Numbered from the stretch's first letter, positions 863 to 64,000 are shown. The stretch is 64,000 bases of DNA from an uncultured Planctomycetaceae bacterium (GCA_964557575.1 CAZLBC010000001.1:2296-66295); one strand, 5' to 3'. The notes: a model not told the origin generated them from the letters alone. Program-made: numbers and translations.

Positions 863-1657
863 TCACAGCTTCTCGGCCGTGGCCGCTTCGCGGTTCCAGA
901 TCACGGTATCCCACTCCGATACCCACGGTTCGTGAAGCGAATTGTAGATGTCGATGCAATCGTGCGCGTCGAATCCGCCCGCGACGGCGATCTCACCGAT
1001 CCGGTCGTACTCCATGGCGTCGCGGATCATGCGCCGAAGTTCTTTCTTCGTCCCGTTCCACAGGCCGCAGTCGTCGCCGCAGTGAAAACCGGGGATGACT
1101 TCGCCGTTGATGTTGTAGATCACGACGTTGCGGCCGCGACTGCGAAGAATCGGGAACTCCCGGGAAACGCAGCGTTGCGCGCGGATCGCTCCGTTGTTGT
1201 ACGCGGCGGAGACCTTCTCCTTGATCTCCCGCAGGGTCGGCAGGGAATCGTAAATCTCTCCGCTCGACCACTGGTGACCGTGGCGCAGCACGTTGCGCCC
1301 GAAGTACCGCGAGATCACTTCGCGGGGGCCGTCCTTGCCGGGCACCTTGGTGACCCGGTTGACAACGCCGGAGCGTTCCCGCGCCTTGTGGTCGGACACG
1401 CTGCGGCGGCCGTGCAGGAACGTGTACAGCGCGTCCTCAAACTGGTTGACGTCGCTGAAGTAATGATCCGTGATCCGGTCGCCGGAGTCGGACGCGCTGA
1501 ACGCGTACCGGGTGTCCCGGCCGAAACTCCAAATCTTAGCAACGCGCTGGAACGCGTCGGCTTCCTCGTTCGTCAGGTGAACGGGAACGGTCATCCGACC
1601 GCTCTTGAGTCCCTCGATCACCGCTCGGATTCCTTCGTAGGTTTTTGTCTCGATCAT
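863..1657 (-). CDS. hypothetical protein
   Basis: ORF 863..1822 trimmed to Met56, which is preceded by GGAGGAGACA. The 5' leader is conserved with genes at 16477 and 21463. Confidence 0.5.
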   Translation of the reverse strand: MIETKTYEGIRAVIEGLKSGRMTVPVHLTNEEADAFQRVAKIWSFGRDTRYAFSASDSGDRITDHYFSDVNQFEDALYTFLHGRRSVSDHKARERSGVVNRVTKVPGKDGPREVISRYFGRNVLRHGHQWSSGEIYDSLPTLREIKEKVSAAYNNGAIRAQRCVSREFPILRSRGRNVVIYNINGEVIPGFHCGDDCGLWNGTKKELRRMIRDAMEYDRIGEIAVAGGFDAHDCIDIYNSLHEPWVSEWDTVIWNREAATAEKL

Positions 1658-1712
1658 GGTTGTCTCCTCCAGTGTTGTGGTCTTCGATCCTGTCGTCCGG
1701 AAGTAAATGTAA

Positions 1713-1760
1713 AAGATTTGTCGGGGAGTTTCAAGAAAAATATCGGGGAGTTTTGAAAAT
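1713..1760. promoter_or_regulatory. promoter-like direct repeat (two units) upstream of gene 863..1657
   Basis: GATTTGTCGGGGAGTTTCAAG and AAAAATATCGGGGAGTTTTGAAAA, 60-100 nt upstream of the minus-strand start. Confidence 0.45.
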
Positions 1761-1923
1761 AAATGCTTGGCGGCCCCCGTGAAAACCCTTGTAACGAGAA
1801 GCGGGAGCATGGTAAAGTTCACATGTGACCACCCGCGTACTTGGCATCGAAGGTGAAAGCGCGGGGACCGGATTTGCGCCGTACCGGGGAATCATCTAAA
1901 CTGCGCCAAGGAGGTCAAGAGCG

Positions 1924-2430
1924 ATGCAACGCTACCCGGTCCCGACTGAAGACGACTTCGTCGTCGAACTGAACGCGGACAGAAAGCTTTTATGCGACGC
2001 GGACGTTCACCCCGTGCGCGATCAGGTGCAGTCCGTCATCGACGGCCGCCAGCCTCCGCTCGAATGGCTTACCCTGTACAACAGCGCGGACATCGTCGCG
2101 GCGTACCGACGGCTTCGCGACGCCGTGACGGTCTACCGTGAAACCAAGCGGAAGCTGGCGGGTTCCGGCTGTTGGGTCAGCGTGTCCAACGCGGCGACGG
2201 TGCGCACCACGCCGGTCGAAATCGCGCAACGCGTAACCGAATGCCGGTGGAACCTCGTCGCCGCCGTCGTCGAAGGGTTGTACGGCGACGCGAAGTACCG
2301 CGCCGCGTCGCTTTGGAACCTGCGGAAGACATTGCTGGTTCGCATGGCGCGCCGTCGGAAGATCAAACGGTACTCCCGCATGCGCAAGCACGAACTGGTG
2401 TACGCGCTGGTCGCCGACGGCTTCGGCTAG
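1924..2430 (+). CDS. hypothetical protein (Rho_N-like C-terminal segment)
   Basis: AAGGAGG lies 9 nt upstream of ATG. One of only three plus-strand genes; TAG stop, followed by a hairpin terminator. Confidence 0.6.
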   Translation: MQRYPVPTEDDFVVELNADRKLLCDADVHPVRDQVQSVIDGRQPPLEWLTLYNSADIVAAYRRLRDAVTVYRETKRKLAGSGCWVSVSNAATVRTTPVEIAQRVTECRWNLVAAVVEGLYGDAKYRAASLWNLRKTLLVRMARRRKIKRYSRMRKHELVYALVADGFG

Positions 2431-2460
2431 AAGGCGGACATCGAACGGTTCGAATAAGCG

Positions 2461-2493
2461 AAACCCCCGGTATTACCCGGGGGTTTCTTTTTT
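2461..2493. terminator. bidirectional rho-independent terminator
   Basis: AAACCCCCGG-TATTAC-CCGGGGGTTT followed by TCTTTTTT. Lies between convergent genes. Confidence 0.6.
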
Positions 2494-2526
2494 CCGCGCG
2501 TCACATGTGTCGGGGGGACTGAACGG

Positions 2527-5500
2527 TTAGTTCGCGCGGAGTTCCTGTTCCTCTTGGCAGTTCGGACCGGAGCAGAACAGCGGGTCTTCGCCGTCCGAAC
2601 CAACGTATTCGGACCAGTCAAGCGGACGGATCGCGGCGCGCCGACGGTTGTACTCCTCTTCCGTGATCCCTTCCTGCGGCGACTGCGCGTACACGCCCGC
2701 CGCCGTGTGCGGAAGAAGCGAAACCGATTTCGTAACGGGAGCCAGCGTGGACAACACGTCTTCGATCTGGTCCTCCTCGTGCATCGGGTTGAACCGGTAC
2801 AGTTTCATGCCGGTTGAGTCGCTTGTTATCCGTATGGCGGAATCCGCGTACTCCTCGCTTTCGGACAGCGTCCGCAGGATTCGCGGCGCGTCGTGCGGGT
2901 CGATGATCGGGTCGTGCAACCCGAACAAAAAGCCTTGGAGTTCATCAGAGTTCGGCAACGCTTCCGGCTTCCACGCCTTTGTCAGGACCCACTTCGGTTT
3001 GAAGAAGAGAGTATTTGACACCGCATTATCAGACCACTCCCTTTGCACGAACATGAGGTTCGCGGCCTGCTCCCACAGACTCGCCTCCGTCGCGGGCTTC
3101 GCCGGTCCTTGAAGAACCGGGAACTCGAAGACGAGCGTTTTCGGGTTGACCTTGTCCGGTTCGCAGGGAACCCCGGCGTCCTGCAAGACAGACACGACAG
3201 GGGCCGTCTCGGAGACGCGCACGCGCATCAGCGTGTGGCGGAACGTCGGGTACCCGATCCCGCTGGTCCGGCCAGCCAACTTGGGCGTGGTTCCTCCCGG
3301 TTTCACGGTCGTGACGCGGATGCTTTCCGGGATACCGGCTTCGGCCGCGAGATCGCGGTTGACTTCACGAATCAAGTTGTAACCGTCTCGGAGCCACCGG
3401 GTGACCTTGTTGATCGGATGCGCCGCCTTCCAACCGGTCAGGTCGACGAGACCGACCCCGATGCGCCGGTTCCGCGCGACGACGCGGTTCGTTTCAGGAG
3501 AGTGCGTCGGAAGCAGGTTGACGCTGCTGCAGTAGATCGCGGCGTACCGGCACGCGTTGAGCCAGTCTTCGACGGTATTGCACCGCGTCGGGAGCGTCTC
3601 GGCGATGTTGCACGTTTCGAACGATTCCAAGGGGACCTCGCCGCACTGTTTGGACGAAACCCACACTTCCTTGTCTCGGCCCCCGTCGGTCGTACCCGCG
3701 AAACCTCCGATGAAGAAGCGGTGTGTTTCGTCCACGGTTCCGTTGTACACGTCTTCGTACCCGTCGAACTCCACAGATATAACTTTGTGGTTATACCCGT
3801 CGGCGCGTTTCTCCAAGTCCTTCCACGACTGGAACGGCGAGGACTTCCGGCAGATTTCAGAGGATACCCCGGACGCCCTGCACGCTTCCACCCATTCCAT
3901 CTTCTTCGGTGTCCGCCCCAGTTCAAACGACAAGTCCAAGAAGACTGCGATCTGTTGTTCCCGGACGTTCTCCCGGCGCGCGTCAAACGTCTTCTTCCTC
4001 CCCTCACGGCGTTTCGCGATCAATCCCGGGTCGGAGTTCATCGCGGCCAGCGAGACTTCGTGAGAGGCGTACGCTTGCTCTCTTCGGTTGGACGGTACGA
4101 TAAACGTTTCTCCTGTCGCTTCACAGACCTTCGTGACCATGACGCGCCCGTCAACAATACCCGCTTCCAGCCCGGATTCCAACAGTTCGTGCAACAGCCG
4201 CACGGTACGGGGGTCGCAATCGGAGAAGTCTTCGACTCCCGCCTTCGCGGCGCACCGCTTGGCGAACGCCGTAATCGTTCCAAGTTCAGCCTTCCGGAAT
4301 TTCGAGAACGACGTCGGAAGATCGCGAGTGACGGCGTACTCCTGCCATTCTTGCTTCGAAAACCTGCGACCGAGATGCCCGGCGAGGTTCACCCCGTGTT
4401 CTAAGAGCGCATCGTTAGTCACGCCGCAGTATCGGGAATTGCTCTCTCCGTCCGAGTGCTCAGACAGATGCGGGAACTCCGATCGGATTTCGAGGTTTTC
4501 AGTCCGGTTATCCGTTTTGCGGCCGTTTATGTGATGAACATGAAGTCCCTGCCGGGGTTCGATCCCGAAGTGCGCCTGCGCGATCAGCCTGTGTTCAGCG
4601 CGCGTTTCGCCGCCAATTGAGAACGTATTGTACTGATCGGCTCTCGATTCACTGCGTCCGTCCGGGAAGTACCGGCTCAAAATACGGAGGGAGTCCCCGC
4701 ACGAGAGTTCTTCGACGGCCTTGGTTTCCTGTCCGCCGCGCAGGTACAACTTGTGGTTCCCCGTCAAGCGCAGGATGTCGCCGCTGTCCAGCACGACCTT
4801 GTACACCGCGACTTTCTTGCCCGTCGCCCGGGGACGGCGCATCCAGTGGATGCCCAACGATCCGTCCAACAACTCGGTGAAGACCCGGACGTCCTGTCCG
4901 GATTCCGCGAGTTCCCGTATCGGGACGGCTCCCCGTCCGTCCGCCGTCAAAACCAGCGTATCTCCAGTCATACACGGGTTCAACCCGGTCGCCTTGTCTT
5001 CCCGCACGTTCGACGCTTTTCCGACGCGCAGGCGGCCGCGCTTCACGTTGACCATGTTCAGGTACCCCGGCTCGCCGTTCTTGATCACGCGTTCGGCGAT
5101 CTCTCCGAGCTTGGCGAAGTCCTCGGGGGTTTCGAGAATCACGCTGTTGTTCGACATCCATCCGATTTCGGCGCGATCCGGATGCTTTTCGTAGTCCTTC
5201 AAATCGGCGAACGTCGGATCGCTGACCGGGGCCAACGAAATTTCTGCGCTACGCCGGACATTTCCGGCGACAACGCAGCATCCGATCGCGTTGAAGATGT
5301 CGACCTTCAACCGCATGGAATCGTATTCGTGTTCGGGGTCGAGAATTTCCGATCCGGGGTTGATGTTGTTGCGCCATTCGCGGTATTTGCGGAAGTACGT
5401 TCGGATTCTCTCGTGCAGTTCCTTGAGCGGGCCGGGACCGGAAGCGCGTCCGCCGAATCCCCGGATCGGCGATCCCTCCGGACGGATTTCAGAGTAGTCG

Positions 5501-6159
5501 AACGTCCACTTCGGCTGGTCCGGGCGAAGATACGAGTCAATCAACCGTTGAACGGATTCGCACCAGCCTTCCCGGCTGTCCGGGATCACGTAGGTTTCTT
5601 CGTTTTCCTCGGGAGGTTCGACGACCTCCGTCAAGTCGTTGCGGTACGGGCGGAATCCGACGCCCACGCCGTTCATCAGGGCGTCCATCGTCCAGTACGC
5701 GGCTTTTCCGATGTTTTCCCTCACCTCGACGAAGGCGCAGTTGAACAGGGCCATTCCGCCGCGTTCGTAGATGTAATCGGTGCCCATCGCCCACAAGCCC
5801 CGGCCCGGCGGCATCCATTCCATCTTGAACGCGGAGACCGCCATTTTGTACGCGGTCTCCTGCCATTTGTCTTCGTCCCATCGGATGCGGTTCCGAATGT
5901 AATGGTTCTTCCGGATGGACAGAACGCCTTCGATCACGCGCTTGATCACTTGCCACCAGCGTTCCTGCCCGATCTGGACAGGATCGCCGTTTTCATCGCG
6001 GACCAGCTCTCCGGTATCCCGGTCGCGGTCCCAAACAGCGCGTGAATACGTGCGGTAAAAGACGAACTCGCCGATTTCCCCGAAGTCCGGTTCCATCGTA
6101 CGGAGATTGTAAACGGTCGATTCGGCGAGGGTGAAGCGGTTTTCTTTGGGTACGAACAC
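2527..6159 (-). CDS. nrdJ: class II (adenosylcobalamin-dependent, NrdJ-like) ribonucleotide reductase, intein-containing
   Basis: Has the FVFYRTYSR N-terminal motif. The catalytic-site motif NP-CGEVPLESFETCN is split by a 443-aa insert. GTG start with GGAGG 6 nt upstream (alternative ATG at 6096, or the ORF start at 6231). Confidence 0.8.
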   Translation of the reverse strand: MFVPKENRFTLAESTVYNLRTMEPDFGEIGEFVFYRTYSRAVWDRDRDTGELVRDENGDPVQIGQERWWQVIKRVIEGVLSIRKNHYIRNRIRWDEDKWQETAYKMAVSAFKMEWMPPGRGLWAMGTDYIYERGGMALFNCAFVEVRENIGKAAYWTMDALMNGVGVGFRPYRNDLTEVVEPPEENEETYVIPDSREGWCESVQRLIDSYLRPDQPKWTFDYSEIRPEGSPIRGFGGRASGPGPLKELHERIRTYFRKYREWRNNINPGSEILDPEHEYDSMRLKVDIFNAIGCCVVAGNVRRSAEISLAPVSDPTFADLKDYEKHPDRAEIGWMSNNSVILETPEDFAKLGEIAERVIKNGEPGYLNMVNVKRGRLRVGKASNVREDKATGLNPCMTGDTLVLTADGRGAVPIRELAESGQDVRVFTELLDGSLGIHWMRRPRATGKKVAVYKVVLDSGDILRLTGNHKLYLRGGQETKAVEELSCGDSLRILSRYFPDGRSESRADQYNTFSIGGETRAEHRLIAQAHFGIEPRQGLHVHHINGRKTDNRTENLEIRSEFPHLSEHSDGESNSRYCGVTNDALLEHGVNLAGHLGRRFSKQEWQEYAVTRDLPTSFSKFRKAELGTITAFAKRCAAKAGVEDFSDCDPRTVRLLHELLESGLEAGIVDGRVMVTKVCEATGETFIVPSNRREQAYASHEVSLAAMNSDPGLIAKRREGRKKTFDARRENVREQQIAVFLDLSFELGRTPKKMEWVEACRASGVSSEICRKSSPFQSWKDLEKRADGYNHKVISVEFDGYEDVYNGTVDETHRFFIGGFAGTTDGGRDKEVWVSSKQCGEVPLESFETCNIAETLPTRCNTVEDWLNACRYAAIYCSSVNLLPTHSPETNRVVARNRRIGVGLVDLTGWKAAHPINKVTRWLRDGYNLIREVNRDLAAEAGIPESIRVTTVKPGGTTPKLAGRTSGIGYPTFRHTLMRVRVSETAPVVSVLQDAGVPCEPDKVNPKTLVFEFPVLQGPAKPATEASLWEQAANLMFVQREWSDNAVSNTLFFKPKWVLTKAWKPEALPNSDELQGFLFGLHDPIIDPHDAPRILRTLSESEEYADSAIRITSDSTGMKLYRFNPMHEEDQIEDVLSTLAPVTKSVSLLPHTAAGVYAQSPQEGITEEEYNRRRAAIRPLDWSEYVGSDGEDPLFCSGPNCQEEQELRAN
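3646..4974 (-). mobile_element. intein with HNH homing-endonuclease domain inside nrdJ
   Basis: Begins CMTGDTLVLTADG (block A) with block B RLTGNHKLYL. Has an internal HHINGRKTDNRTENL HNH motif. Block F/G-like EDVYNGTVDETHRFFIGG ends ...SSKQ followed by extein Cys (CGEV), so it appears to end in Gln rather than Asn. Confidence 0.7.
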
Positions 6160-6362
6160 GGGCGGGCCTCCAAACGGTTGATGTTGCGCACAATCCTGTT
6201 TTATACATCGCCCGGATTGCGGTGTCCACACTCAATACATCGGGCAGGGAGGGCTAATCCGAACATAAACTTTTCGGGATTTTACAAAAAACATCACAAG
6301 TCGCTGGTTCCGTCCGGATTTTCAAACGAACTTGGAAACCCGGACGGACCCTGAAAAAATTT

Positions 6363-49058: not shown

Positions 49059-49634
49059 CTATGTCTTGACGAACGGCTGCCACGCGGGACGGGTCGCCGC
49101 CAGTTCAGCCAGTCGACGGTACGCCATCCACGAAGGCTTCTTCGGATCGACCCGAAGCCGCATTCCGGCTTGCTTCGGAGTCCGGTCAGCCTTGGTTTCG
49201 TTGCACTTCCGGCAGGACGCCACGCAGTTTTCCCACGTGGTCCTGCCTCGCTGGGACCGGGGAACGACGTGATCGATCGTCAACTCCTTCTTTTCGAACT
49301 GCTCGCCGCAGTAGGCGCAGCAGTTGTGCTCCCGCTTGAAGACCGCCGACTTGGAGTAGTTCACGGTGCGCTGCGGAACCTTGTCGTACTCCGCGAGAAC
49401 GATCACTTCCGGACATTCGAACTTGAAATCGCGCGCGCCGGGAACAAACGGCCGATCGGGCCGCACGCCGCGCTCGGCCCAGTCGTCCCACGTGTACGTT
49501 ATGAACGTCTCGTGGTCGACGACCGTCGCGCCGCCGGTGTATAGGTGGCCGATCGCGTCAGCGACCGTCGACACCGCGATCGGCATCCAGTTCCGGTTCA
49601 GAACCAGAACCGACATCTGAAGCACGTCCTGCAT
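49059..49634 (-). CDS. HNH homing endonuclease (free-standing)
   Basis: AAGGAGGG RBS. CAYCGEQF...LTIDHVVPRSQRG...WENCVASCRKCNETK HNH core. Confidence 0.7.
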   Translation of the reverse strand: MQDVLQMSVLVLNRNWMPIAVSTVADAIGHLYTGGATVVDHETFITYTWDDWAERGVRPDRPFVPGARDFKFECPEVIVLAEYDKVPQRTVNYSKSAVFKREHNCCAYCGEQFEKKELTIDHVVPRSQRGRTTWENCVASCRKCNETKADRTPKQAGMRLRVDPKKPSWMAYRRLAELAATRPAWQPFVKT

Positions 49635-49935
49635 CGCTGACGCCCTCCTTTGAAACAGGGACCCTTGAAAATTTTTCCCGAAGGAAATCGATATCACACC
49701 AGATGATTTTCCCTTCGAGCGTCAACAGGACGCCCGGATGATTCGGCGTTCGAACTGGGAGTCGAATGTGAACGGGGAAATCGCCGCCGGGCGGGACAGC
49801 CCGGACCTTGGCTTTCTTTCCATCCGCTCGATTGTACCAGACCCCCTCCCATTCGCTTCGGTGGTCCCGGGACGCCTTCTTTGGATTTCGCCGCTTCTGC
49901 GGACGCTTCTTGCGATTCTTTTTTTGTTTCGGCAT
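49558..49935 (-). CDS. hypothetical protein with polybasic N-terminus
   Basis: GAGGG RBS. The 3' end overlaps the HNH gene by about 77 nt. Confidence 0.4.
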   Translation of the reverse strand: MPKQKKNRKKRPQKRRNPKKASRDHRSEWEGVWYNRADGKKAKVRAVPPGGDFPVHIRLPVRTPNHPGVLLTLEGKIIWCDIDFLREKFSRVPVSKEGVSDAGRASDVGSGSEPELDADRGVDGR

Positions 49936-55530: not shown

Positions 55531-56136
55531 TCACCTCGCGTTATGGTTCGATTGCACCTGCCGGATTCCAAACCCGTCGCTGTGCATAACGATTTGCGAT
55601 GCGGGATTGTTCGTCTCGGAACCTGCGTCAAGCCGAACGCGGTACGCTTCGCCGAAAGACTCGTCCAGCCGTTCGACGATAACGCCCGGCGTGCGCGCGC
55701 TGAAAACATCGGTGATCACCCCGTCGCCGACCCGGTAGTCCACGCCAATGTCTCGCAAGTTGAAAACGGCCTGCAAACCGCCGAGCGAAGACATGCTGTC
55801 CAGTACGCGCGGGTCGTCCGGGTTCCTGTCCACATCGAACGACCGCTCTTCGCCGTCGCCGTAAAACGCGGACACCTTGCGGCCGACGACGTCAACCACC
55901 GCGCCGAACAGCGCGCCGATAACGTGATCGCTGGCGATCCACAACACGGGGTCGCCTACGCGGAAATCCTTCGTGAGAAGCGTTGGGGGCGCGACAGGAC
56001 GTCGAACGCGCTGCAGTACGGCATCTGCGGACGGGGGAAGGTTAAACGCCGCCAGAGAAGCGTACAAACGGCTTCCGCGCGGAACGCCGTTGTCCACGAC
56101 CTTCCCGCGAACGTGAAACTTCATGTTGGATTCCAC
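55531..56136 (-). CDS. hypothetical protein
   Basis: GTG start after GAGGAG. Confidence 0.5.
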   Translation of the reverse strand: MESNMKFHVRGKVVDNGVPRGSRLYASLAAFNLPPSADAVLQRVRRPVAPPTLLTKDFRVGDPVLWIASDHVIGALFGAVVDVVGRKVSAFYGDGEERSFDVDRNPDDPRVLDSMSSLGGLQAVFNLRDIGVDYRVGDGVITDVFSARTPGVIVERLDESFGEAYRVRLDAGSETNNPASQIVMHSDGFGIRQVQSNHNAR

Positions 56137-56600
56137 TGCACGATCTCCTCGACGTCAACATCCTCGAAATCCGTCAAGGGGATCGCGCGGCCCTCCTTGC
56201 GAAGTCCGAGTACCGTCTGGTCTAACAACTGAAGTATCGGCGGACTGACAAACACGAGGCACTTCCGGAACTCGTCTTCCGCGACGTCGGCGATCTTCCT
56301 AAGCGGGGTTAAACGGATCGCCTGCCGGAACATGTGAAGGGAGGCGCGCATGTAGACTTCCGTGTCGAGGCTGTCGCCCAACCGGTAACCTTCAACGCGG
56401 CGATGCGGCGCGCCGCGCTCCACGGGACCCGCGTTCTTGGCTAAGTCGCGCTCAACCCGCAAGCGGCGCGACACGAACTCCAGCGAATCATAGACAACGA
56501 TCCCGATCGGAAACGCGTCGGGGTTGATGACAACCGGGGCGATCACCGTGTTTCCCTCGGCGACGTACGCGTAAACCCATTTTCCCTCAAATCGGGGCGT
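56121..56600 (-). CDS. C-terminal portion of a protein that may be joined to the upstream ORF by a +1 frameshift
   Basis: The protein-like frame begins with no start codon at ...FEGKWVYAYVAEG. It is reached from ORF 56587..56901 by a +1 shift at AUU UGA G. Confidence 0.3.
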   Translation of the reverse strand, partial: TPRFEGKWVYAYVAEGNTVIAPVVINPDAFPIGIVVYDSLEFVSRRLRVERDLAKNAGPVERGAPHRRVEGYRLGDSLDTEVYMRASLHMFRQAIRLTPLRKIADVAEDEFRKCLVFVSPPILQLLDQTVLGLRKEGRAIPLTDFEDVDVEEIVQWNPT

Positions 56601-56901
56601 CAGCACAACTGGATTCCTCTCCGAACCGTCCCTTGCGAAGCACGCGAAGAAGCGGGTACACTTTCGGGTTCTCTTCCGCAAGCGCGGCGAAGAAACGACA
56701 CCGCTTGACAATGAAGTCGGTGCGCCCCACACCGCCGACCACGCAAGCGACACGCGGCGACGGTTCGTCTTCCATGTAAACGCGCGCGACCTCGGCTTCC
56801 GGGATGATCTTCGAAAGCATCACGAAGGCTTCGTTGAACTCCCGGCGGAGGCCGTTCTCGTTAACCCAGTTCAGGACTTCCGGTTCCACGTTCTTTTTCA
56901 T
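56587..56901 (-). CDS. hypothetical protein (N-terminal part of possible frameshifted gene)
   Basis: GGAGAG RBS. Ends at a TGA that overlaps the continuing frame. Confidence 0.45.
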   Translation of the reverse strand: MKKNVEPEVLNWVNENGLRREFNEAFVMLSKIIPEAEVARVYMEDEPSPRVACVVGGVGRTDFIVKRCRFFAALAEENPKVYPLLRVLRKGRFGEESSCADAPI

Positions 56902-57094
56902 TATCGCTCTCCGTGCCGCGTTCCGCGTCGAGAGCAGTATCCGAGATCAGTTTCGAATAGTCAAATTCGTCCCCGGTCGGGCTTTCAACCGTTGAAAGCA
57001 TGACCGACGCAAGCTGATGTCCGATGCTCGATCTCCAAAGCCATGTGGACCTTTTCCGGGGAAAACCCCCGAATTTCATTGAACGAAATCATCC
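56861..57094 (-). CDS. small protein whose two halves lie in different frames (possible +1 frameshift)
   Basis: ATG at 57094 sits 7 nt after AAGGAG and gives MISFNEIRGFSPEKVHMALEIEHRTSACVGHAFNG, then TGA. The +1 frame continues ESPTGDEFDYSKLISD... to 56861. Confidence 0.3.
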
Positions 57095-57171
57095 GGTTTC
57101 TCCTTGTAAAAGAAGCCCGCGAGGGGAACGCGGGCTGCTGACGGGGTGATCGACGGATTTTGGGGATACCG

Positions 57172-57486
57172 TCAATCGTTGGGTTTCGGGTGGATTCGGG
57201 CCAGAATGTCGACTTGAGAAATCAGCATGTAATCCTCGTCGTCGACTTTGATTTCGGTTCCCCCGTACATCGCGATGATGACGCGGTCTCCGCTTTTGAG
57301 GGGGCACTCCCCGTCCCCGTCCTCGACGGGAACATTGATCACGGTCGCCTTGTTCGTGGCCTGCTGCGCCGTGTGCGGCAGTATAATGCCGCCTTTCGAG
57401 ACGTCTTCCGGCTTGTCTTTTTGAACGAGAATACGATCGTTCAACGGTTCAAGTCGGCACGTCTTCTTTTTCGCTTCGGACGTCAT
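57172..57486 (-). CDS. groES: co-chaperonin GroES
   Basis: GGAAGGAG RBS. LEPLNDRILVQK...GGIILPHTAQ...GDRVIIAMYGGTEIKVDDEDYMLISQVDILA matches the Cpn10 family. Confidence 0.8.
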   Translation of the reverse strand: MTSEAKKKTCRLEPLNDRILVQKDKPEDVSKGGIILPHTAQQATNKATVINVPVEDGDGECPLKSGDRVIIAMYGGTEIKVDDEDYMLISQVDILARIHPKPND

Positions 57487-57533
57487 TCCGGACTCCTTCC
57501 TGAAAAAATGGTGGATCGTGCTAAAAAATTTTT

Positions 57534-57640
57534 GACCCTGACAGGATTCGAACCTGCACTGCATTAGTTTCTTGCACCACTTCACAGCCCGGCTCTTGGT
57601 GCAACACACCGGGGCGTCTGCCATTTCCGCCACAGGATCA
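57534..57640 (-). other. tRNA-like element (about 107 nt) with unresolved fold
   Basis: 3' end GCAGG-UUCGAAU-CCUGU-CAGGGUC-A pairs with GAUCCUG 107 nt upstream. D-loop AAAUGGCAGA resembles the Leu-type family. Confidence 0.25.
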
Positions 57641-57648
57641 AATTCTAA

Positions 57649-57670
57649 ACACACACACACACACACACAC
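57649..57670. repeat. (AC)11 dinucleotide microsatellite
   Basis: ACACACACACACACACACACAC in the non-coding region between the tRNA-like element and the tmRNA. Confidence 0.8.
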
Positions 57671-57852
57671 GACTTTGGCGAACCGCAGCGTAACGCATCC
57701 GCACCGACCGCCATTGACCCTACTCCGGTAACGCGGCTCAGTCCTGACCAAGCCCCTTCGGGTCCGCGCCGACCTGATGGATGCCGAACTATAGCGTCAC
57801 GTGCCGGACTTACAACATCACGTACTCGACGATCTCAAAGCCGTGAATATTT

Positions 57853-58315
57853 TGGTGGAGGCGAGGGGAATCGAACCCCTGTGCTGAATCTCTTCCGTAT
57901 CAGCGTCCCCATGTTCACCCTAGTCCTGCCTCACTCCAAGGGTACGGTGAGGGGCTTGTTGTGACACGTTTCCAGTGCCGCACACGGGTCGTGCGCAAAT
58001 GAGGAGTGCGTCTTTCCGCGTCGTCCCTCGTATGTACCTCGAACGCCGGGACTTACTTGTCAGCCGTCTCTCCGCACAGGGTTGTCCCCGTGGCCCCCAT
58101 GTTTCGCTCGCCGCTACTTAGGGTGCGCTGTCCGTTCTTGTAGGTGTCCCCATGACGTTACCAGAACAATCTCACGTCATGGAGTGCGGCTAGGCCGCGT
58201 TTGCTAAAGCAGGTTCAGCAATTAGTTGTTGAGCGCAGTTTTTAACGTGGACTGACGTTCATACCACGACATGCAGCCGATACTTCCAACGACCAGTCGA
58301 AACCAAGTCGCCCCC
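57853..58315 (-). ncRNA. ssrA: tmRNA (SsrA-like)
   Basis: 5' end GGGGGCGACUUGGUUUCGACUGG pairs with 3' end AGGGG-UUCGAUU-CCCCU-CGCCUCC-A-CCA. The UUCGAC 5' motif matches bacterial tmRNAs. Internal candidate tag reading frame ...AEPALANAA-UAG. No protein-coding ORF over 800 nt. Confidence 0.55.
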
Positions 58316-58352
58316 GATTTTCAAAGATCACGCTGAAACGGGTAATTCCGTT

Positions 58353-58850
58353 TCAGCGGCGCAAAATACTGTCGAAAATCCCGGAGAATCCGCTGACGAA
58401 AACCGGGCAATTACAAAATTCGATCCCGGCGGCTTCGATCCGCTGCTCGATCTCAGCCTGCAACACGAGCCAAGCGATCGTCCCGATCTTGTCCGCCGTA
58501 GAACGCCCGACGGGCTTCTCCGAAAATGTTCCGTCATCGTCGGGAACCATCACCGAGACGCGGAATCCGGACGGTTTGACTGGTACCGTGACCGCGTCTT
58601 CGGAATACTTGGCCGCGCTTTCGTCAGCCGAGTAGGTCTCCGTGACGTAGATTTCGCGTACTCCCTTGAATTTGACCTTGATCAGTTCGTCCCCCGCGTC
58701 CTCGTGCGAGACGGCCTCTTGATCCGGCATGTCGACCTCTGCGGCCGTAAACATGTCGGAAACCAAATCGACGAGTTCAAACAAACGCTTGACGCGCTCT
58801 TCCTCGGTCCGCTCGACACGGAGCTTCGCTTCAACCTGAATCTTCGGCAT
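58353..58850 (-). CDS. hypothetical protein
   Basis: GAGGAGG RBS. Lies downstream of the tmRNA. Confidence 0.55.
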   Translation of the reverse strand: MPKIQVEAKLRVERTEEERVKRLFELVDLVSDMFTAAEVDMPDQEAVSHEDAGDELIKVKFKGVREIYVTETYSADESAAKYSEDAVTVPVKPSGFRVSVMVPDDDGTFSEKPVGRSTADKIGTIAWLVLQAEIEQRIEAAGIEFCNCPVFVSGFSGIFDSILRR

Positions 58851-58918
58851 CTTTTTTTTCCTCCTCGATTACCGATTCCTCTACACCCGTATATATCGGC
58901 AAACGAGGGCAAAAAACA

Positions 58919-59386
58919 TTAGTCTTTCTTCGACTTTTTCTTCTTTTTTCGTTTCTTGCGGTTCAGCGGCGACGGCTCGTCCTGCGGAAGGTACCCGCTT
59001 CCGGGTTGTCCCATCGCAGCGGAGGTCTGCGAGAATCCGCCGACATTCCCCGACGTCATCGCTTCGCCGACGGTGCCCTTGTCGGCATTGTCCCGGACTG
59101 TCCGCGCGGCTTTCAGCAGTCCGGCCTTGACCTCGTCGAACGGGATCACCGTGGAGTAGTAATACGGGTCCTCCGTCAGGTGATCCAGCGTGATTTCCAA
59201 CGCCTCTCCGGCGTCGTCGGTGTGTTCCATTTCAACAGCAATGCCCGCGACAATCTGGCAGTAGCAAAAATCTCTGACACGTGCGTCGTCCCCGACGCCG
59301 CCTTCGACCTCATTACCCGCCATGCTCGGGTCGTCATCGGATTCCCGGAGCATCCGGTGCATCACGTCTCGACTTGTACGCTTCAT
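58919..59386 (-). CDS. hypothetical protein with poly-Lys C-terminus
   Basis: ACGGAGGG RBS at Met19. Confidence 0.5.
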   Translation of the reverse strand: MKRTSRDVMHRMLRESDDDPSMAGNEVEGGVGDDARVRDFCYCQIVAGIAVEMEHTDDAGEALEITLDHLTEDPYYYSTVIPFDEVKAGLLKAARTVRDNADKGTVGEAMTSGNVGGFSQTSAAMGQPGSGYLPQDEPSPLNRKKRKKKKKSKKD

Positions 59387-59444
59387 AAAAAAGCCCTCCG
59401 TTTCGCAACCAAGTATGCGACGGAGGGCCTCACGTGTCAAATAA

Positions 59445-59515
59445 TGCGTCGGACGGGGATCGAACCCGTTACCACGTTTTTAGAGAACGCCGCCTATCCA
59501 TTCGGCTTCCGACGC
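59445..59515 (-). tRNA. tRNA with anticodon CUA (amber-suppressor-like)
   Basis: Acceptor GCGUCGG/CCGACGC, A73. Anticodon stem GCGUU/AACGU with loop CUCUAAA (U33, anticodon CUA, purine 37). T-arm ACGGG-UUCGAUC-CCCGU. Confidence 0.5.
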
Positions 59516-59523
59516 AATTCGAC

Positions 59524-60216
59524 TTAAACGTCCGAGATGCGGCCGGTCTTGGGATCGACGTCGACGACAAACGGGGAAACGGAAGGTCCGTACCGGTTCA
59601 CCGGGACCGACACCTCGGCTCGATTGTGCATCCGAAGGTCTTCCGGACGGTGAATCTCGATCACCGCTGTCGCCATCGCCGCCGTCGCCCACGGGGCTTC
59701 CCCGGGACCTTCCCTCGAAGACTCCTTTGACGATCCGCTGTCGAAATCCCCGTTGCGTCGCAACTGGGTACTGGTGAACACCGGACACCCCAGCGCGGCC
59801 CCGACGCGCTGCAGCGCGCAAAAAGCCAAAGACGTGCTGATACGCGGAATCGGGTCCACGATCAGCATGTCGGTCTGGAAAGCCGCACGCGAGACCACGC
59901 CCAACACGTCGAAGAAAACCAAATCGGGCGACAACGTCCGGTACGTGTCGGAAAACAACGATCCGTCAACCTCGTTCGGGAGAAAGTCGCTGTACTTGAG
60001 CATGACCTCGCTCGGCGACAATTCGAAGTCGGAGGTCATGTGGATCACGTTGAACCCGTTCAACGCGGCGTGCGCTCCGATGGAGCAAAGCATCGAAGTC
60101 TTCCCGTCCTTCGGGCGCGCCGCGACCACGACCACGTCACCCGCGTGAAACCCTTTGTCCGGGTGACTCGCGCGAACGGCGTTGTTGATTTTTGAAAAGG
60201 GAGTTTCAATCGACAT
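59524..60216 (-). CDS. DnaB-like / RecA-fold ATPase domain protein
   Basis: VVVAARPKDGKTS Walker A and LIVDPIP Walker B-like. Only the C-terminal helicase domain is present. Confidence 0.5.
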   Translation of the reverse strand: MSIETPFSKINNAVRASHPDKGFHAGDVVVVAARPKDGKTSMLCSIGAHAALNGFNVIHMTSDFELSPSEVMLKYSDFLPNEVDGSLFSDTYRTLSPDLVFFDVLGVVSRAAFQTDMLIVDPIPRISTSLAFCALQRVGAALGCPVFTSTQLRRNGDFDSGSSKESSREGPGEAPWATAAMATAVIEIHRPEDLRMHNRAEVSVPVNRYGPSVSPFVVDVDPKTGRISDV

Positions 60217-60286
60217 GATTCGGTCCTCGATTAGAAAAAGGTGAAAAGAAAAGCCGAACCCTGTCCAAAGGTTCGGCCGGTTTCAG

Positions 60287-60652
60287 TCATTCGCGTTCGG
60301 AGCAATACTGCATGGTCGTCATCGCGAACTGCTGCGACCAACCCCATTCGTCCATGACGAACTGGTTGAACTCCTCGGTCGTCAGTTCGACTTCGTCGCC
60401 GACTTGAAGCTCGAACATCCGAATGAACTTGTTGTACTCCTTCTCGAACGTCCGTGGTGCCTGTTTGGCGAACGGGACGAGAGGGTCTCCGTTGCTGACG
60501 CGTTCGATCTGCTCCTGCAGGTGCTTGACGACCTGCTTCTGGTAGATTTCCTGCGCCTCTTCGGCGTTCTTGATGTGCGTCTCCCGATTCTTCCGGAGAA
60601 TCTCCAGAATCTCGGCCTTGGGAAAACGACGTACCGTCGCGTTGCGGTTCAT
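60287..60652 (-). CDS. hypothetical protein
   Basis: ORF 60287..61042 trimmed to Met131 behind GAGGAGG. Confidence 0.5.
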   Translation of the reverse strand: MNRNATVRRFPKAEILEILRKNRETHIKNAEEAQEIYQKQVVKHLQEQIERVSNGDPLVPFAKQAPRTFEKEYNKFIRMFELQVGDEVELTTEEFNQFVMDEWGWSQQFAMTTMQYCSERE

Positions 60653-60675
60653 GTCGTGTACCTCCTCAAAGTGGT

Positions 60676-60713
60676 AAAAAAAAAACGAACCGGTCAGACG
60701 TTCTGACCGGTTT
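60676..60713 (-). terminator. rho-independent terminator
   Basis: 11-bp stem AACCGGTCAGA/TCTGACCGGTT followed by U10 on the minus strand. Confidence 0.6.
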
Positions 60714-60879
60714 CCTGTTCCTGTTGTACCGCCCGGATCACCGCGATGTGCTGGATAAACGCTTCTTTCGCGAATTTCTCGACTTCGTGTTTTTGCGCGA
60801 CCGCGTCTTTCGAACCGTAGTGTTTCGCGATTGACTCGCGAACGGCGCGTTCGACATCGATTGTGACCTTGACCTTCAT
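60694..60879 (-). CDS. small hypothetical protein
   Basis: CGGAGGA RBS at Met22. The stop lies inside the terminator stem. Confidence 0.45.
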   Translation of the reverse strand: MKVKVTIDVERAVRESIAKHYGSKDAVAQKHEVEKFAKEAFIQHIAVIRAVQQEQETGQNV

Positions 60880-61011
60880 CGGTTCCTCCGAGAATAAAAC
60901 CGCGCCGGTCGCCTCCCCCGGTGTCAGATACCGCAGTGCCAAAGAACCGGGTTATCGTCCTGCGGTCTGTGAGGCGGCAATCGCTCCACCATGACCGGCG
61001 CGGAATTTTAA

Positions 61012-61084
61012 TCGTCGCGGAGGGATTCGAACCCCCAACCAACTGGGTGTAAACCAGTCACTCTAACCGTTGAGTTACGCGACG
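61012..61084 (-). tRNA. tRNA-Val (anticodon UAC)
   Basis: D-arm ACUC-AACGGUUA-GAGU. Stem ACUGG/CCAGU with loop UUUACAC. Confidence 0.6.
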
Positions 61085-61092
61085 GATGCCCG

Positions 61093-61410
61093 CTACATTT
61101 CCAACGTGATGGTTCCCTGTTTTCCTCCGGAACTTCCGACAATTTCGCCATGGAGGATGTAGCAGTTCTCCATGGAACGAACCGCGTCGCGCTTCAAAAT
61201 GAAATCGTCGGGGTCGCCGTCGGATTCCTTCACGACAACGAAAACATCCCGGGGCGTCATCGTCAGCTTTTTCGGGATGTCCGGGACATCGCCCGCTTGC
61301 GTTTCGAACACCTTGACGGCGCATCCCGCGTCCGCAAGAGAATGCCGAATTGCTTCGGCGACTGTCGTCTTTCCCGCGCCGACCGGGCCTTCAATCGTAA
61401 TCTTCAACAT
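61093..61410 (-). CDS. P-loop NTPase (small kinase-like)
   Basis: GAGGTGGA RBS at Met18. GPVGAGKTT Walker A. Confidence 0.5.
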   Translation of the reverse strand: MLKITIEGPVGAGKTTVAEAIRHSLADAGCAVKVFETQAGDVPDIPKKLTMTPRDVFVVVKESDGDPDDFILKRDAVRSMENCYILHGEIVGSSGGKQGTITLEM

Positions 61411-61463
61411 TAGTGTCCACCTCGTGTTCAAACTATAAAATGAACTGAGCTGCCGCACCAACT

Positions 61464-62564
61464 TTATTGCGCGCCTTTTCTACGATTACAATCCGCGCAA
61501 AGCATACGTCCATTATTCGTATCCGTCTTGCCGCCTTGAGACCATGGAGTAATATGGTCGGCGTGCATTTCCGCCAGATCGCATTCTTTATCACATTGCG
61601 CGCATTGGCCGCTTTGTTTCTCATACATCGTGCGTCGTTGCTTCTTATCGAAAGCTCGAATGTTGAGATGTTTTACTTCTCCCGTGAGAACATACGCATA
61701 AATCCCGCGTTTATTCGTCACGTCTTCATCAGCCATCAACACGGAAATCCGATCTTCCAACTCTTCAGCATCAAGCGTGTCATTTTTGTGAGCTTCGTAC
61801 ATTTCATTCCACGGCAAGCCCTTCATCTCTTTGCGGTATTCCGTAAATACCGTTTGGACCCAGCGTATCACTTTTTTGAAGTAGTTCCATAGAGAATTTG
61901 CATTTTGCCGGTGCTGATGGGTCGCCATGTAAGATCGAATGTGCATGTCGTTCGGCTGATTCTCTTTCGTCGCCCACTTGATGGCCAATTCAAGCAATTC
62001 TTGCCGAATCGGACTGCCTTTGACGTAGGCCCCTCCAAGTTGATAAGCCGCACAGCTTCTCCGAGAAAACCGTCTCTTCGCGTCGGACAACCATGGACCA
62101 GTATATACAGCGTTGCGTAGTTCTTGTTCAGTTAATGGTTCTCCGGCAATGTTAACGGTCTTGAACCATTCCAATAACTCGGTATGACTTCCCGAGCACT
62201 GATAAATCATGAGTTCGTAGTCAAGAATGCGGGACTGGGTCTCTTCACCCAAGTTGGCAAAGTTCATTGCATTGACTTGGAACATGCCGGAAACGTATTG
62301 GCAGATTGAAATAGTGCGTTGCTGTCCGTCGAGGATTTCGAAAGTGTCATCATCATGTTTGGCCCAGTACATGATATTAAGGGGCAAGCCTTTGAGCACG
62401 GAGTCAATAACCGCATTACGTTGGGCGGCGTCATAAACGAACTCTCGTTGATATGGCGGTCGGATGTCTAACAGGCCGTTGTAGCCTTTGACTCCTTCTT
62501 CCGCGTTATCTTCGTACCCGGCCACAACTTCGCGAATCGGGATATTGTGCAGTTCAACTCTCAT
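61464..62564 (-). CDS. DUF262 + HNH (GmrSD-like type IV restriction endonuclease-like)
   Basis: N-terminal ILDGQQRT (DGQQR, DUF262/ParB-like NTPase). C-terminal HADHITPWSQGG...N...CADCNRRKG (HNH/DUF1524). Low GC compared with its surroundings. Confidence 0.7.
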   Translation of the reverse strand: MRVELHNIPIREVVAGYEDNAEEGVKGYNGLLDIRPPYQREFVYDAAQRNAVIDSVLKGLPLNIMYWAKHDDDTFEILDGQQRTISICQYVSGMFQVNAMNFANLGEETQSRILDYELMIYQCSGSHTELLEWFKTVNIAGEPLTEQELRNAVYTGPWLSDAKRRFSRRSCAAYQLGGAYVKGSPIRQELLELAIKWATKENQPNDMHIRSYMATHQHRQNANSLWNYFKKVIRWVQTVFTEYRKEMKGLPWNEMYEAHKNDTLDAEELEDRISVLMADEDVTNKRGIYAYVLTGEVKHLNIRAFDKKQRRTMYEKQSGQCAQCDKECDLAEMHADHITPWSQGGKTDTNNGRMLCADCNRRKGAQ

Positions 62565-62628
62565 GAGGTTATTCCTTTGTTGTCATTTGTTTCTGTACAG
62601 TTCTGTCATGTATGCGTAGGAATAATGA

Positions 62629-62826
62629 TTATACATCTTCCTCTGTAATATCGCCTATCTTGATTAAGACGTATTGGTAAAACCTACTGTCATTACTAGG
62701 ACTTAAAGAAATACGTCCTATTGGCACCTTAAAACAGGGGTCATTTTCTGTGGTTTTGATCTCTATCGTATTACCTGTTTGCCTACAAAAGTAAGTATTA
62801 ATACGGGTTCTTTTCTTGTCTTTCAT
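62629..62826 (-). CDS. small hypothetical protein (island)
   Basis: AT-rich 65-aa ORF between the MTase and the GmrSD-like gene. Confidence 0.4.
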   Translation of the reverse strand: MKDKKRTRINTYFCRQTGNTIEIKTTENDPCFKVPIGRISLSPSNDSRFYQYVLIKIGDITEEDV

Positions 62827-62836
62827 GTCTTGTTTC

Positions 62837-63820
62837 CTATTCCTCTGTTGTTATTGGATGAAGGTTGCGAATGAGTACCCTGACATACTTAGTCTTCCCA
62901 TTAACTGATCCTTCTTTATCTTTGATTAGTCCATGAGGTTTGCTCGGTATTGCTCGTGACTTTTTGAGGTCATTGCAATTTAGTATCTCAAATTGTCTTG
63001 GGCAATATTTATCAAGGAACGTAATTGGCACGCCCATCACTCCGGGATAGTCCTCGGGAATATCTTTTACGCTATCGACGTTAATGGCGTCGTAGTTATC
63101 ATAGGCGAGATGTTTGTCGGGGTCGTAAAGCGCGATCAGGTCAATTGGTTGGTTGCGTTTCTTGTGGTTCATGTTGGTAAACCAACATGTATTGCCTAAT
63201 TTGACAAACTTCTGTCCCCCATCCTCATAACATCCACGTTTTCCTATTGGAGTATTATCGGGTACTCGATAAGAGCGACTTCCGCCTACTACCCCCATCC
63301 ATACCTTGTTCTCCCTGATAAGCGGAAACATCTCCTTATATGTAAGCGCATTCATATTGCCGATGATCAAGAACTTCTTTTTATACTGGACAAGTTGTGC
63401 GACGTATTCACGAAACAGGGAGAATGGCGGGTTGGTACAAACTATGTCGGCTTCCTTTAGCAACTCCACGCACTCCGGGCTGCGAAAATCCCCGTCACCC
63501 GCCAAAGGGGTAATCTCGATTTCATCTATATCAGGAACGCCGTTGCCGTTTTGGTCGCCTTCATATACGAACTTCATGGCGCGACCTGTTAGTCCGCCGA
63601 TGTATGAAGTCGCGATAAGCTTCTTTAGCTTCAGATGCTCGAACTGCTTGGCGAAGTAATCCCAGAACTTTGATTCCAACGGGTCGTCGCAATTCAGGTA
63701 GACGACTTTGTTCTTGAAATGTCGCCAGTAATGGTATGCCTCGGCTTCGATATCCTCAAGGCGGGTATAGAACTCGTCGTTCTTCGTCGTCTTCGCTTTA
63801 TGCAGATTGCGATTTGCCAT
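62837..63820 (-). CDS. DNA methyltransferase (N6-adenine/N4-cytosine, NPPF motif)
   Basis: AAGGAG RBS. CTNPPFS motif IV and an FxGxG-like IATSYIGG. AT-rich relative to the rest of the window. Confidence 0.7.
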   Translation of the reverse strand: MANRNLHKAKTTKNDEFYTRLEDIEAEAYHYWRHFKNKVVYLNCDDPLESKFWDYFAKQFEHLKLKKLIATSYIGGLTGRAMKFVYEGDQNGNGVPDIDEIEITPLAGDGDFRSPECVELLKEADIVCTNPPFSLFREYVAQLVQYKKKFLIIGNMNALTYKEMFPLIRENKVWMGVVGGSRSYRVPDNTPIGKRGCYEDGGQKFVKLGNTCWFTNMNHKKRNQPIDLIALYDPDKHLAYDNYDAINVDSVKDIPEDYPGVMGVPITFLDKYCPRQFEILNCNDLKKSRAIPSKPHGLIKDKEGSVNGKTKYVRVLIRNLHPITTEE

Positions 63821-63841
63821 TCATCTTCTCCTTCCGGCTAT

Positions 63842-63905
63842 CAAATAAAGACCGCCGACCTGATGGTTATGAGCCACCCGAGCTACCTGACTGCTCCATC
63901 CCGCG
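63842..63905 (-). pseudogene. 3'-truncated initiator tRNA-fMet-like gene
   Basis: CGCGGGAUGGAGCAGUCAGGUAGCUCGGGUGGCUCAUAACCAUCAGGUCGGCGGU closely matches the bacterial initiator tRNA 5' two-thirds (anticodon CAU). It breaks after the 5' T-stem, where the RBS of the AT-rich MTase gene begins. Confidence 0.5.
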
Positions 63906-63919
63906 ATCGATTTTCAAAA

Positions 63920-63991
63920 AGCCGAGAGCCGGATTCGAACCGGCGACCTGCGGTTTACAAAACCGCTGCACTGCCTCTGTGCTATCCCGGC
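63920..63991 (-). tRNA. tRNA-Thr (anticodon UGU)
   Basis: Stem GCGGU/ACCGC with loop UUUGUAA. T-arm GCCGG-UUCGAAU-CCGGC. Confidence 0.6.
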
Positions 63992-64000
63992 GTAGTGTCG

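Follow-up and report, generated by a model that had tools for sequence, protein, structure and literature searches.

The stretch of DNA analysed here (64,000 nt from an uncultured Planctomycetaceae bacterium, GCA_964557575.1 CAZLBC010000001.1:2296-66295; hereafter the window, with positions counted from its first letter) is a portion of a large phage. Towards its end, on the minus strand, an island between 61411 and 63850 encodes a putative DNA methyltransferase (MTase) and a putative DUF262-HNH nuclease, and it directly abuts an initiator-type tRNA gene of which only the 5' part is left. We read this island as a horizontally acquired two-gene cassette of the restriction-modification (R-M) type, with variable filler between its genes, which is lodged in the tRNA array of the phage. 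The probability of this reading is, in our estimation, about 0.65.

A low-GC island with an MTase gene and a nuclease gene

The segment 61464-63820 has a G+C content of 0.454 and is the compositional outlier of the window, where other segments of the same size have a mean of 0.584 (standard deviation 0.020, minimum 0.533, n = 1183). The low-GC island, which a first-pass annotation had proposed from the sequence, is therefore confirmed by the windowed G+C check. The shift sets in at ~61420 and ends at ~63850. Furthermore, the G+C content at third codon positions (GC3) is 0.54 in the MTase gene, 0.35 in orf65 and 0.52 in the nuclease gene, compared with 0.67-0.78 in five neighbouring genes. The region 61411-63850 contains only these three open reading frames (ORFs), all of them intact and on the minus strand, and all three had been recognised in the first-pass annotation (as an NPPF methyltransferase, a 65-aa ORF and a DUF262+HNH nuclease).

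The MTase gene (62837..63820, minus strand) encodes a protein of 327 aa that is assigned to the EcoRI family (gamma class, NPPF) of N6-adenine MTases. It matches PF13651 (EcoRI_methylase) over profile positions 1-344 of 345 (E = 5e-125) as well as the PADLOC model MTase_II over the full length (E = 2.6e-114), and the TNPPF motif is present in the translation. Note that its stop codon is TAG and that read-through would add 13 extra residues.

The nuclease gene (61464..62564, minus strand) encodes a protein of 366 aa. Its N-terminal domain corresponds to PF03235 (GmrSD_N; E = 9e-19, 68.8 bits, cutoff 33.2) with the DGQQR motif, and its C-terminal domain is a zinc-ribbon HNH nuclease domain (PF01844, E = 3e-13; also PF14279 HNH) with a CxxC...CxxC arrangement. 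The LDGQQRT motif and the residues D336, H337, N351 and N360 are present and are invariant across homologues, of which there are at least 8000 with ~59% identity. In addition, residues 3-363 match the PADLOC profile REase_II (PDLC03418) over positions 3-369 of 372 (E = 1.2e-135). The AlphaFold model (mean pLDDT 71) consists of a ParB/Srx-like N-domain and a Gme-HNH-like C-domain. Sequence and profile searches of the PDB with the nuclease gave HNH domains only, without a sequence-level match to the BrxU or SspE structures, and a Foldseek search with the model gave no whole-protein PDB match. NCBIfam contains no model for either the MTase or the nuclease.

The first-pass annotation had assigned this protein to the GmrSD type IV family of modification-dependent nucleases, an assignment that is not supported. 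If it were correct, the enzyme would act on modified DNA (e.g., that of hypermodified competitor phages), and the methylase would be an independent gene for anti-restriction or self-marking. Modification-dependent nucleases are indeed the best-known DUF262 enzymes (PMC4619093, PMC12707154); the N-terminal PF03235 domain with its DGQQR motif fits them, and so does the fold, which weakly resembles that of BrxU (Foldseek E = 0.015). However, the C-terminal domain belongs to PF01844 and not to DUF1524 (PF07510), for which the nuclease has no match at E <= 0.01, and the protein is roughly half as large as usual, its 366 aa comparing with 580 residues in the BrxU chain matched. The full-length match to REase_II also speaks against a type IV enzyme, and the linkage to one MTase family in 77 of 80 genomes (see below) would be needless for an enzyme that acts independently. 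Moreover, the DUF262 enzyme EF_B0059 is active without modified DNA (PMC11322646). Going by its domains, the nuclease does not represent a canonical type IV enzyme of the GmrSD kind, and we regard this alternative as unlikely. A function as an HNH nuclease of DNA packaging was also considered and rejected: there is no terminase gene close to the nuclease gene, whose family is bacterial and linked to MTases.

The two genes form a conserved pair in bacteria

A collection of species genomes contains at least 575 matching stretches. Eighty loci were taken from them and inspected for an MTase gene within 4 kb of the nuclease homologue. An EcoRI-family methylase is present in 77 of these loci, which represent many phyla; it is almost always encoded immediately upstream on the same strand, often with an intergenic gap of a few bases. 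Of the three exceptions, one has a truncated nuclease, one an upstream insertion of a different R-M system, and one an intact nuclease for which no methylase is visible. With the same gene order, the pair is present in bacterial genomes by the hundreds. The pair is also found on the chromosome of Nicoletella (MTase 55% identical), in a prophage beside cI/cro and integrase genes, and in four of four sampled plasmids (Firmicutes, Proteobacteria, Actinobacteria, Bacteroidota), with MTase linkage in seven of seven sampled chromosome, prophage and plasmid loci. The closest copy is located on a metagenome contig (L004), where the MTase is 70% and the nuclease 76% identical to the phage proteins. Among 52 cassettes (a subset of L043-L122 together with L002, L005, L039, L040 and the window) the pairwise identities of MTase and nuclease are correlated (r = 0.56).

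Because of this near-constant linkage to one MTase family, we regard the two genes as a probable cognate R-M pair; the linkage argues against a nuclease that attacks the mark of its own partner. On sequence grounds, the MTase and the DUF262-HNH protein are a conserved pair of the R-M type, for which sequence-specific cleavage blocked by cognate methylation is predicted.

The gap that separates the two genes serves as a slot for variable inserts. In the phage it contains orf65 (62629..62826, minus strand), the most AT-rich stretch (G+C 0.35), whose 65-aa product has no match in Pfam, PHROG, PADLOC or NCBIfam. Its sole match among 5.8 billion proteins is itself, and no homologue is encoded in 87 other cassette loci; orf65 may not be a real gene. 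The same slot holds a 172-aa ORF in L004 (1113-1631), the resistance gene optrA in a plasmid of Enterococcus dispar (L042, 572-2539), and inserts of 0.4-1.6 kb in ~12 bacterial genomes.

In about seven of the 80 loci (L048, L052, L069, L072, L073, L084, L092) the cassette has a tRNA gene at a distance of no more than ~600 bp, and ~2 such loci would be expected by a rough estimate from a density of 14 tRNAs in 609 kb. Frequent transport of the cassette in tRNA-associated islands, or insertion next to them, is thus hinted at.

The cassette abuts a truncated initiator-type tRNA gene

Ahead of the island, the final tRNA of the array that is still intact is tRNA-Thr(UGU) (63920..63991, minus strand; detected by ARAGORN, Rfam tRNA 68.6 bits). 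It is followed by an initiator-type tRNA(CAU) of which the 5' 55 nt are present (63851..63905, minus strand). Read from 63905 to 63851, this fragment has the sequence CGCGGGATGGAGCAGTCAGGTAGCTCGGGTGGCTCATAACCATCAGGTCGGCGGT and comprises the 5' acceptor strand, the D-arm, the anticodon arm, the variable loop, the 5' strand of the T-stem and the first base of the T-loop; the 3' strands of the T-stem and of the acceptor stem are missing. The break thus lies in the T-loop, one base past the 5' T-stem strand. The truncation had been noticed in the first-pass annotation, which let it end exactly after the 5' T-stem, at the point where the ribosome-binding site (RBS) of the MTase gene begins. The latter part needs correction: the RBS (GGAAGGAG, 63835-63828) starts ~15 nt after the break, within the upstream junction, an AT-rich spacer of 30 nt (63821..63850, minus strand) that is followed by the ATG at 63820.

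The fragment possesses the CAU anticodon, C1 and the A11:U24 pair. Its anticodon stem has two G-C pairs and U29:A41 instead of three G-C pairs, and position 72 is among the missing ones. It is identical in 45 of 55 positions to what we take to be the sequence of E. coli tRNA-fMet. The 27-nt anticodon arm is matched exactly in intact initiator-type tRNAs of 31 metagenome contigs, which are unrelated to the phage and whose initiator-like tRNAs have an unpaired base opposite position 72. A covariance model trained on 22 intact tRNAs from the contigs that share the anticodon arm fits positions 1-55 of the fragment nearly perfectly, and beyond them most pairs of the T-arm and the acceptor stem fail (53 bits). 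As a perfect 5' part meets an unrelated 3' part, the break points to a sharp recombination junction and not to gradual decay. In line with the truncation, ARAGORN detects no tRNA at the fragment and Rfam gives no tRNA match at E <= 1; an alternative fold of the fragment region is not stable (z = +0.79), and the junction showed no stable RNA structure. A group I intron or a split tRNA was considered and rejected, since no 3' exon was found. Note also that the 31 unrelated contigs (L006-L036) reveal a recurrent initiator-tRNA variant with the anticodon stem GGUGG/CCAUC, in which U29:A41 replaces the third G-C pair.

The spacer between tRNA-Thr and the fragment is 14 nt long, and other tRNAs of the array are 2-8 nt apart. 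Because of this array-like spacing, the fragment most likely stems from an initiator-type tRNA gene that belonged to the phage itself, as the first-pass annotation had assumed.

Limits of the cassette and mode of entry

The DNA homology with L004 starts one base before the ATG of the MTase gene and ends at the stop codon of the nuclease gene, so that the transferable unit appears to consist of the genes alone; the 30-nt upstream spacer is not shared with L004. At the other end, a spacer of 53 nt (61411..61463, minus strand), delimited by the end of the L004 homology and by the gene call in L001, separates the nuclease stop codon from the ATG of the next phage gene. This gene (61410-61093, minus strand) encodes a 105-aa P-loop protein and has a backbone-like GC3 of 0.67.

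No integrase is encoded in the island, and no tyrosine or serine recombinase was found among the flanking genes checked. The missing 3' part of the tRNA is absent both from the window and from 3.5 kb beyond it (0 matches to the predicted 20-mer with up to 3 mismatches), and a 12-mer search for it gave matches at chance level. The direct repeats attL and attR, which had been suggested for the ends of the island, were not found at a significant level: a repeat finder gave no flanking direct repeat, and the best alignment between the two junctions was equalled by 48 of 500 shuffled sequences. Since integrase, repeats and a 3' remnant are all lacking, the entry is best described as an illegitimate replacement rather than as att-site integration. 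Of the proposed mobile island inserted into a tRNA gene, the foreign island abutting a tRNA stands, and the site-specific integration is not supported. Within the sequence searched, the 3' third of the tRNA gene is lost, not displaced. The downstream junction contains at 61425-61450 (minus strand) the sequence GGTGCGGCAGCTCAGTT, which resembles a 5' acceptor strand and the start of a tRNA D-arm; as its alignment with the upstream junction is weak (the one equalled by 48 of the 500 shuffles), the likeness is probably due to chance.

A selfish element of the homing type could also have produced a junction within a conserved tRNA sequence. In this case, when two phages infected the same cell, the HNH nuclease would have cut the cassette-free one within its tRNA gene or close to it, repair would have copied the cassette into the break, and the methylase would protect the carrier. 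Clusters of tRNA genes in phages are known sites of homing endonucleases, e.g. of SegB in T4 (PMC2330249), exchange boundaries in phages are marked by nuclease genes (PMC10448857), and another HNH ORF is present in the same tRNA array (49059-49697). However, the family is overwhelmingly bacterial, chromosomal or plasmid-borne, and comes with an MTase partner; furthermore, the tRNA has been destroyed, whereas homing usually preserves the function of the flanks, and there is no relative to show a presence/absence polymorphism. We therefore consider homing very unlikely, and return to the R-M-type cassette.

Proposed role of the cassette in the phage

According to the proposed scenario, the cassette would have entered by illegitimate or break-repair recombination, replacing the 3' end of the tRNA gene and possibly more. 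No sigma-70-like promoter was found on the coding strand between 60900 and 64000, and no terminator either; as a promoter-like site is lacking, transcription may proceed by read-through from the tRNA array. The methylase would mark its target sites on the phage DNA, and the HNH nuclease would cut unmarked DNA, i.e., the host chromosome or co-infecting phages. By analogy with GmrSD/BrxU (PMC4619093, PMC12707154) and ParB, the DUF262 domain may act as a nucleotide-dependent switch or as a DNA clamp. The phage could gain a weapon for attack or exclusion, and, in addition or instead, the cassette could persist as a selfish addiction module; the price to the phage would be the loss of its initiator tRNA. 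The broad idea of a self-marking, anti-competitor module, already put forward in the first-pass annotation, survives in this scenario.

A side observation concerns six-base palindromes. We compared the backbone (1-61410 and 63851-64000) with the island (61411-63850) for 14 palindromes, each of which is expected at least 5 times. In the backbone, these palindromes have 3 sites in total where 216 are expected (e.g., CCGCGG 0/49, GCCGGC 0/31.5, GGATCC 0/17 and GAATTC 0/12.7, observed/expected), and 19 of the 64 six-base palindromes are wholly absent. A genome so poor in palindromes could bear a restriction nuclease at little risk to itself. The island contains 1 site where ~6 are expected for the 14 palindromes (Poisson P ~0.01, calculated from the counts). 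As it shares the avoidance, the island either has experienced this restriction pressure for a while or stems from the same milieu.

These counts also bear on the view that the cassette is a functionally irrelevant passenger, acquired recently and by accident, with the truncation of the tRNA as collateral damage that awaits loss. The composition of the island is not ameliorated, an ORFan fills the space between the genes, and phages rarely possess a complete R-M system (9 in 831 genomes, PMC4176335), all of which would suit a passenger. Against this, both enzymes are intact with invariant catalytic residues, and the shortage in the island of the palindromes that the phage avoids implies time under selection in the lineage or environment. 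We find a mere passenger quite unlikely.

A bolder version of the role of the cassette combines several of these points. The DUF262 (ParB/Srx)-HNH protein and the EcoRI-family methylase might represent an uncharacterised, nucleotide-gated class of methylation-linked restriction, which would discriminate by sensing the mark and not through a sequence-specific nuclease of the classical Type II sort. It would serve as an offensive weapon of a large, probably virulent phage that would be safe from it thanks to its purged palindromes. We mention this as a speculative possibility and rather doubt it.

Observations that weigh against the R-M-type cassette

Several observations do not sit easily with the interpretation as an R-M-type cassette. 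The first concerns conservation. In Type II systems it is unusual for the nuclease to be more conserved than its MTase. Exactly this is seen in the 52 cassettes, where the mean identity is 63.6% for the nuclease and 55.8% for the MTase, and the nuclease value is the higher one in 95% of the 1326 pairs. Such a pattern could be explained if the DUF262 NTPase reads the m6A mark of the partner on self DNA, and thereby licenses or restrains the HNH nickase; discrimination would then rest on mark sensing and not on a sequence-specific nuclease that its own site, once methylated, blocks. A precedent is SspE (DUF262+DUF1524), which depends on the phosphorothioate mark of its own host (PMC9646914), and the ParB/Srx nucleotide-binding fold in the nuclease model would suit this mechanism. 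On the other hand, the methylase has a single hypervariable block of ~20 aa near residues 280-300, with the rest of its putative target-recognition part mostly conserved, as fits an ordinary isospecific R-M family. Sensing of the self mark therefore appears to us rather unlikely, if slightly less so than a type IV enzyme.

The second group of observations concerns the integrity of the R-M-type pair. In L004 and L041 a split MTase gene accompanies an intact nuclease gene (the coverage of L004 is ~3x, so that an assembly error is possible), and in L046 and L114 an intact nuclease has no EcoRI-family MTase within 4 kb. In the light of these four cassettes, a strict toxin-antidote model fits poorly. 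L046 also contains a chimeric ORF (1421-3447), which begins with ~25 residues similar to the N-terminus of the DUF262-HNH protein and continues as a C5-cytosine methyltransferase, with a second ORF after it; this looks like a different R-M system inserted at the usual place of the EcoRI-family methylase.

The remaining points concern the history of the island. The shared palindrome avoidance means either that the island is not very recent or that it comes from the same restriction environment, with a G+C content that is still unadjusted. Only 67.5 kb of the 198-kb genome are visible, and a second, intact initiator tRNA gene may be present elsewhere. No close relative of the phage was found in the collections searched, and hence no true empty site; the cassette may have arrived by insertion followed by deletion or by a single replacement. 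Finally, the literature searched contains no characterised, named member of the nuclease family, and no solved structure was found; the block of the nuclease by methylation is a prediction. In fact, searches for DUF262 with HNH and methyltransferase, for PF13651 and for DUF262 with EcoRI gave no description of an MTase/DUF262-HNH pair.

Search for relatives of the phage

A megablast search with 56000-64000 against 50,697 phage records gave no match, and the portal protein has relatives of at most 28% identity. In IMG/VR, single-protein scans with two flanking proteins found nothing, and exact-pattern scans with the tRNA fragment, tRNA-Thr and tRNA-Val yielded either no match or phages that are unrelated. 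For the ARPP protein encoded nearby, identity to the best homologue is 54%. Note that L001 is the window's own sequence (0 mismatches in 8070 bp) and not an independent observation. The nearest usable comparator is L038, a distant syntenic relative with the same genes for a 549-aa protein and the ARPP protein and with the same start of the tRNA array, in which the order of the tRNA genes is rearranged. The initiator tRNA of L038 is intact and shares 78% identity with the fragment; for six other tRNAs compared between these phages, the identities are 58-79%. An initiator-like tRNA near the ARPP gene is present in 8 of 27 large IMG/VR phages (flanks of up to 10 kb on each side).

The gene pair upstream of the tRNA array, coding for a protein of ~550 aa and for a protein with ARPP-1/ARPP-2 domains, is itself conserved (L001 3-2667, L037 8260-11053, L038 3983-6658, L127-L153); it recurs in many large phages (27 IMG/VR contigs, 14-436 kb in length) as well as in bacteria of Planctomycetota-like type.

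Comparison with known systems

KpnI, Hpy99I and PacI belong to Type II R-M systems with HNH (beta-beta-alpha-metal) nucleases. The phage locus shares with them adjacent, co-oriented genes for an N6-adenine MTase and an HNH nuclease, which move horizontally together, and a match to a restriction endonuclease profile. Unlike the classical Type II HNH enzymes, the cassette nuclease has an N-terminal DUF262/ParB-Srx nucleotide-binding domain and is more conserved than its MTase, and no characterised prototype, recognition site or structure was identified. With GmrSD, BrxU and SspE (PMC4619093, PMC8565348, PMC9646914) the nuclease has in common an N-terminal DUF262 domain with DGQQR, a C-terminal His-Me finger nuclease and a DHxxP-type motif. 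It differs from them in its PF01844 zinc-ribbon HNH C-domain and its size (~360 aa versus the 580-residue BrxU chain), and, in contrast to these stand-alone enzymes, it is nearly always paired with an EcoRI-family MTase (77/80 loci). Two defining features of the GmrSD family, namely DUF1524 together with BrxU-like size and action without a cognate methyltransferase, are not found, and we therefore do not count the nuclease among its members. By the tests available, all of them computational, the locus belongs to the Type II kind of R-M systems, with an unusual DUF262-HNH architecture.

Phage P1 carries an R-M system of its own, EcoP1I. Complete R-M systems have been recorded in phages at the low frequency given above, and those of chloroviruses are on record as well (PMC7248222). 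As in these viruses, both methylase and nuclease are encoded here, plausibly for use against host or competitor DNA with protection of self. The carrier is different, being a large, uncultured, tRNA-rich phage with a T4-like portal (198-kb contig), and so are the DUF262-HNH nuclease and the disruption of a tRNA gene. It follows from the find that phages can carry R-M cassettes between hosts, with a possible use against host or rival DNA. Furthermore, as the MTase + DUF262-HNH pair is very widespread (the 575 or more matching stretches, plus plasmids and prophages), it is a worthwhile target for enzymology.

In classical integration at tRNA genes, an integrase is required, the 3' segment of the tRNA is duplicated and the tRNA is kept intact. 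The cassette resembles tRNA-targeting islands and prophages in being an island of foreign composition with one end in the T-loop region of a tRNA, yet none of these three features is found in the phage. Among mobile R-M complexes, an R-M unit in a tRNA gene that includes an integrase homologue has been described by Furuta, Abe and Kobayashi (2010, PMC2853133). Like the mobile units of that study, the cassette is an insertion or substitution without obvious dedicated machinery; unlike the tRNA case, it has no integrase, long target duplication or flanking repeat, and the tRNA is truncated rather than regenerated. SegB of T4 is likewise encoded within a phage tRNA array, but it is a GIY-YIG enzyme without an MTase partner that promotes the inheritance of intact flanking tRNA genes (PMC2330249), whereas the cassette is an MTase-nuclease pair of bacterial type and the tRNA is destroyed. 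Insertions that truncate a tRNA in this way are rare, but the event can be understood and does not amount to a system of a new kind. It provides an example, at base resolution, of a cassette landing in a phage tRNA array, and a natural knockout of an initiator tRNA that is relevant to the role of phage-encoded initiator tRNAs.

Other features of the window

The phage nature of the window is evident from genes for a portal protein, a ribonucleotide reductase, an SbcC-like nuclease and glycosyltransferases, and exactly the same nuclease protein as that of the cassette is recorded from a contig of 198,081 bp. The window contains 23 tRNA genes and one tmRNA. The latter (57853-58315, minus strand) was detected with Rfam RF00023 (88.9 bits, gathering score 47, E = 5e-35) and was not called by ARAGORN. 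A tRNA with a CUA anticodon (59444-59516, minus strand), labelled 'Pyl' by ARAGORN and scoring 52.8 bits with the Rfam tRNA model, is a potential amber suppressor. Long ORFs are normal under code 11, and there is no sign of recoding in the part of the genome covered by the window.

Two further HNH segments are encoded in the window. The ribonucleotide reductase ORF (2527-6231, minus strand, 1234 aa) has an internal HNH-endonuclease segment at residues ~531-598, which suggests an intein or an inserted homing endonuclease. The HNH-domain ORF at 49059-49697 (minus strand), mentioned above, is located in the tRNA array, where tRNA-Ser(UGA) and tRNA-Leu(UAA) flank it; it has a backbone-like composition and looks like a free-standing endonuclease of the homing type.

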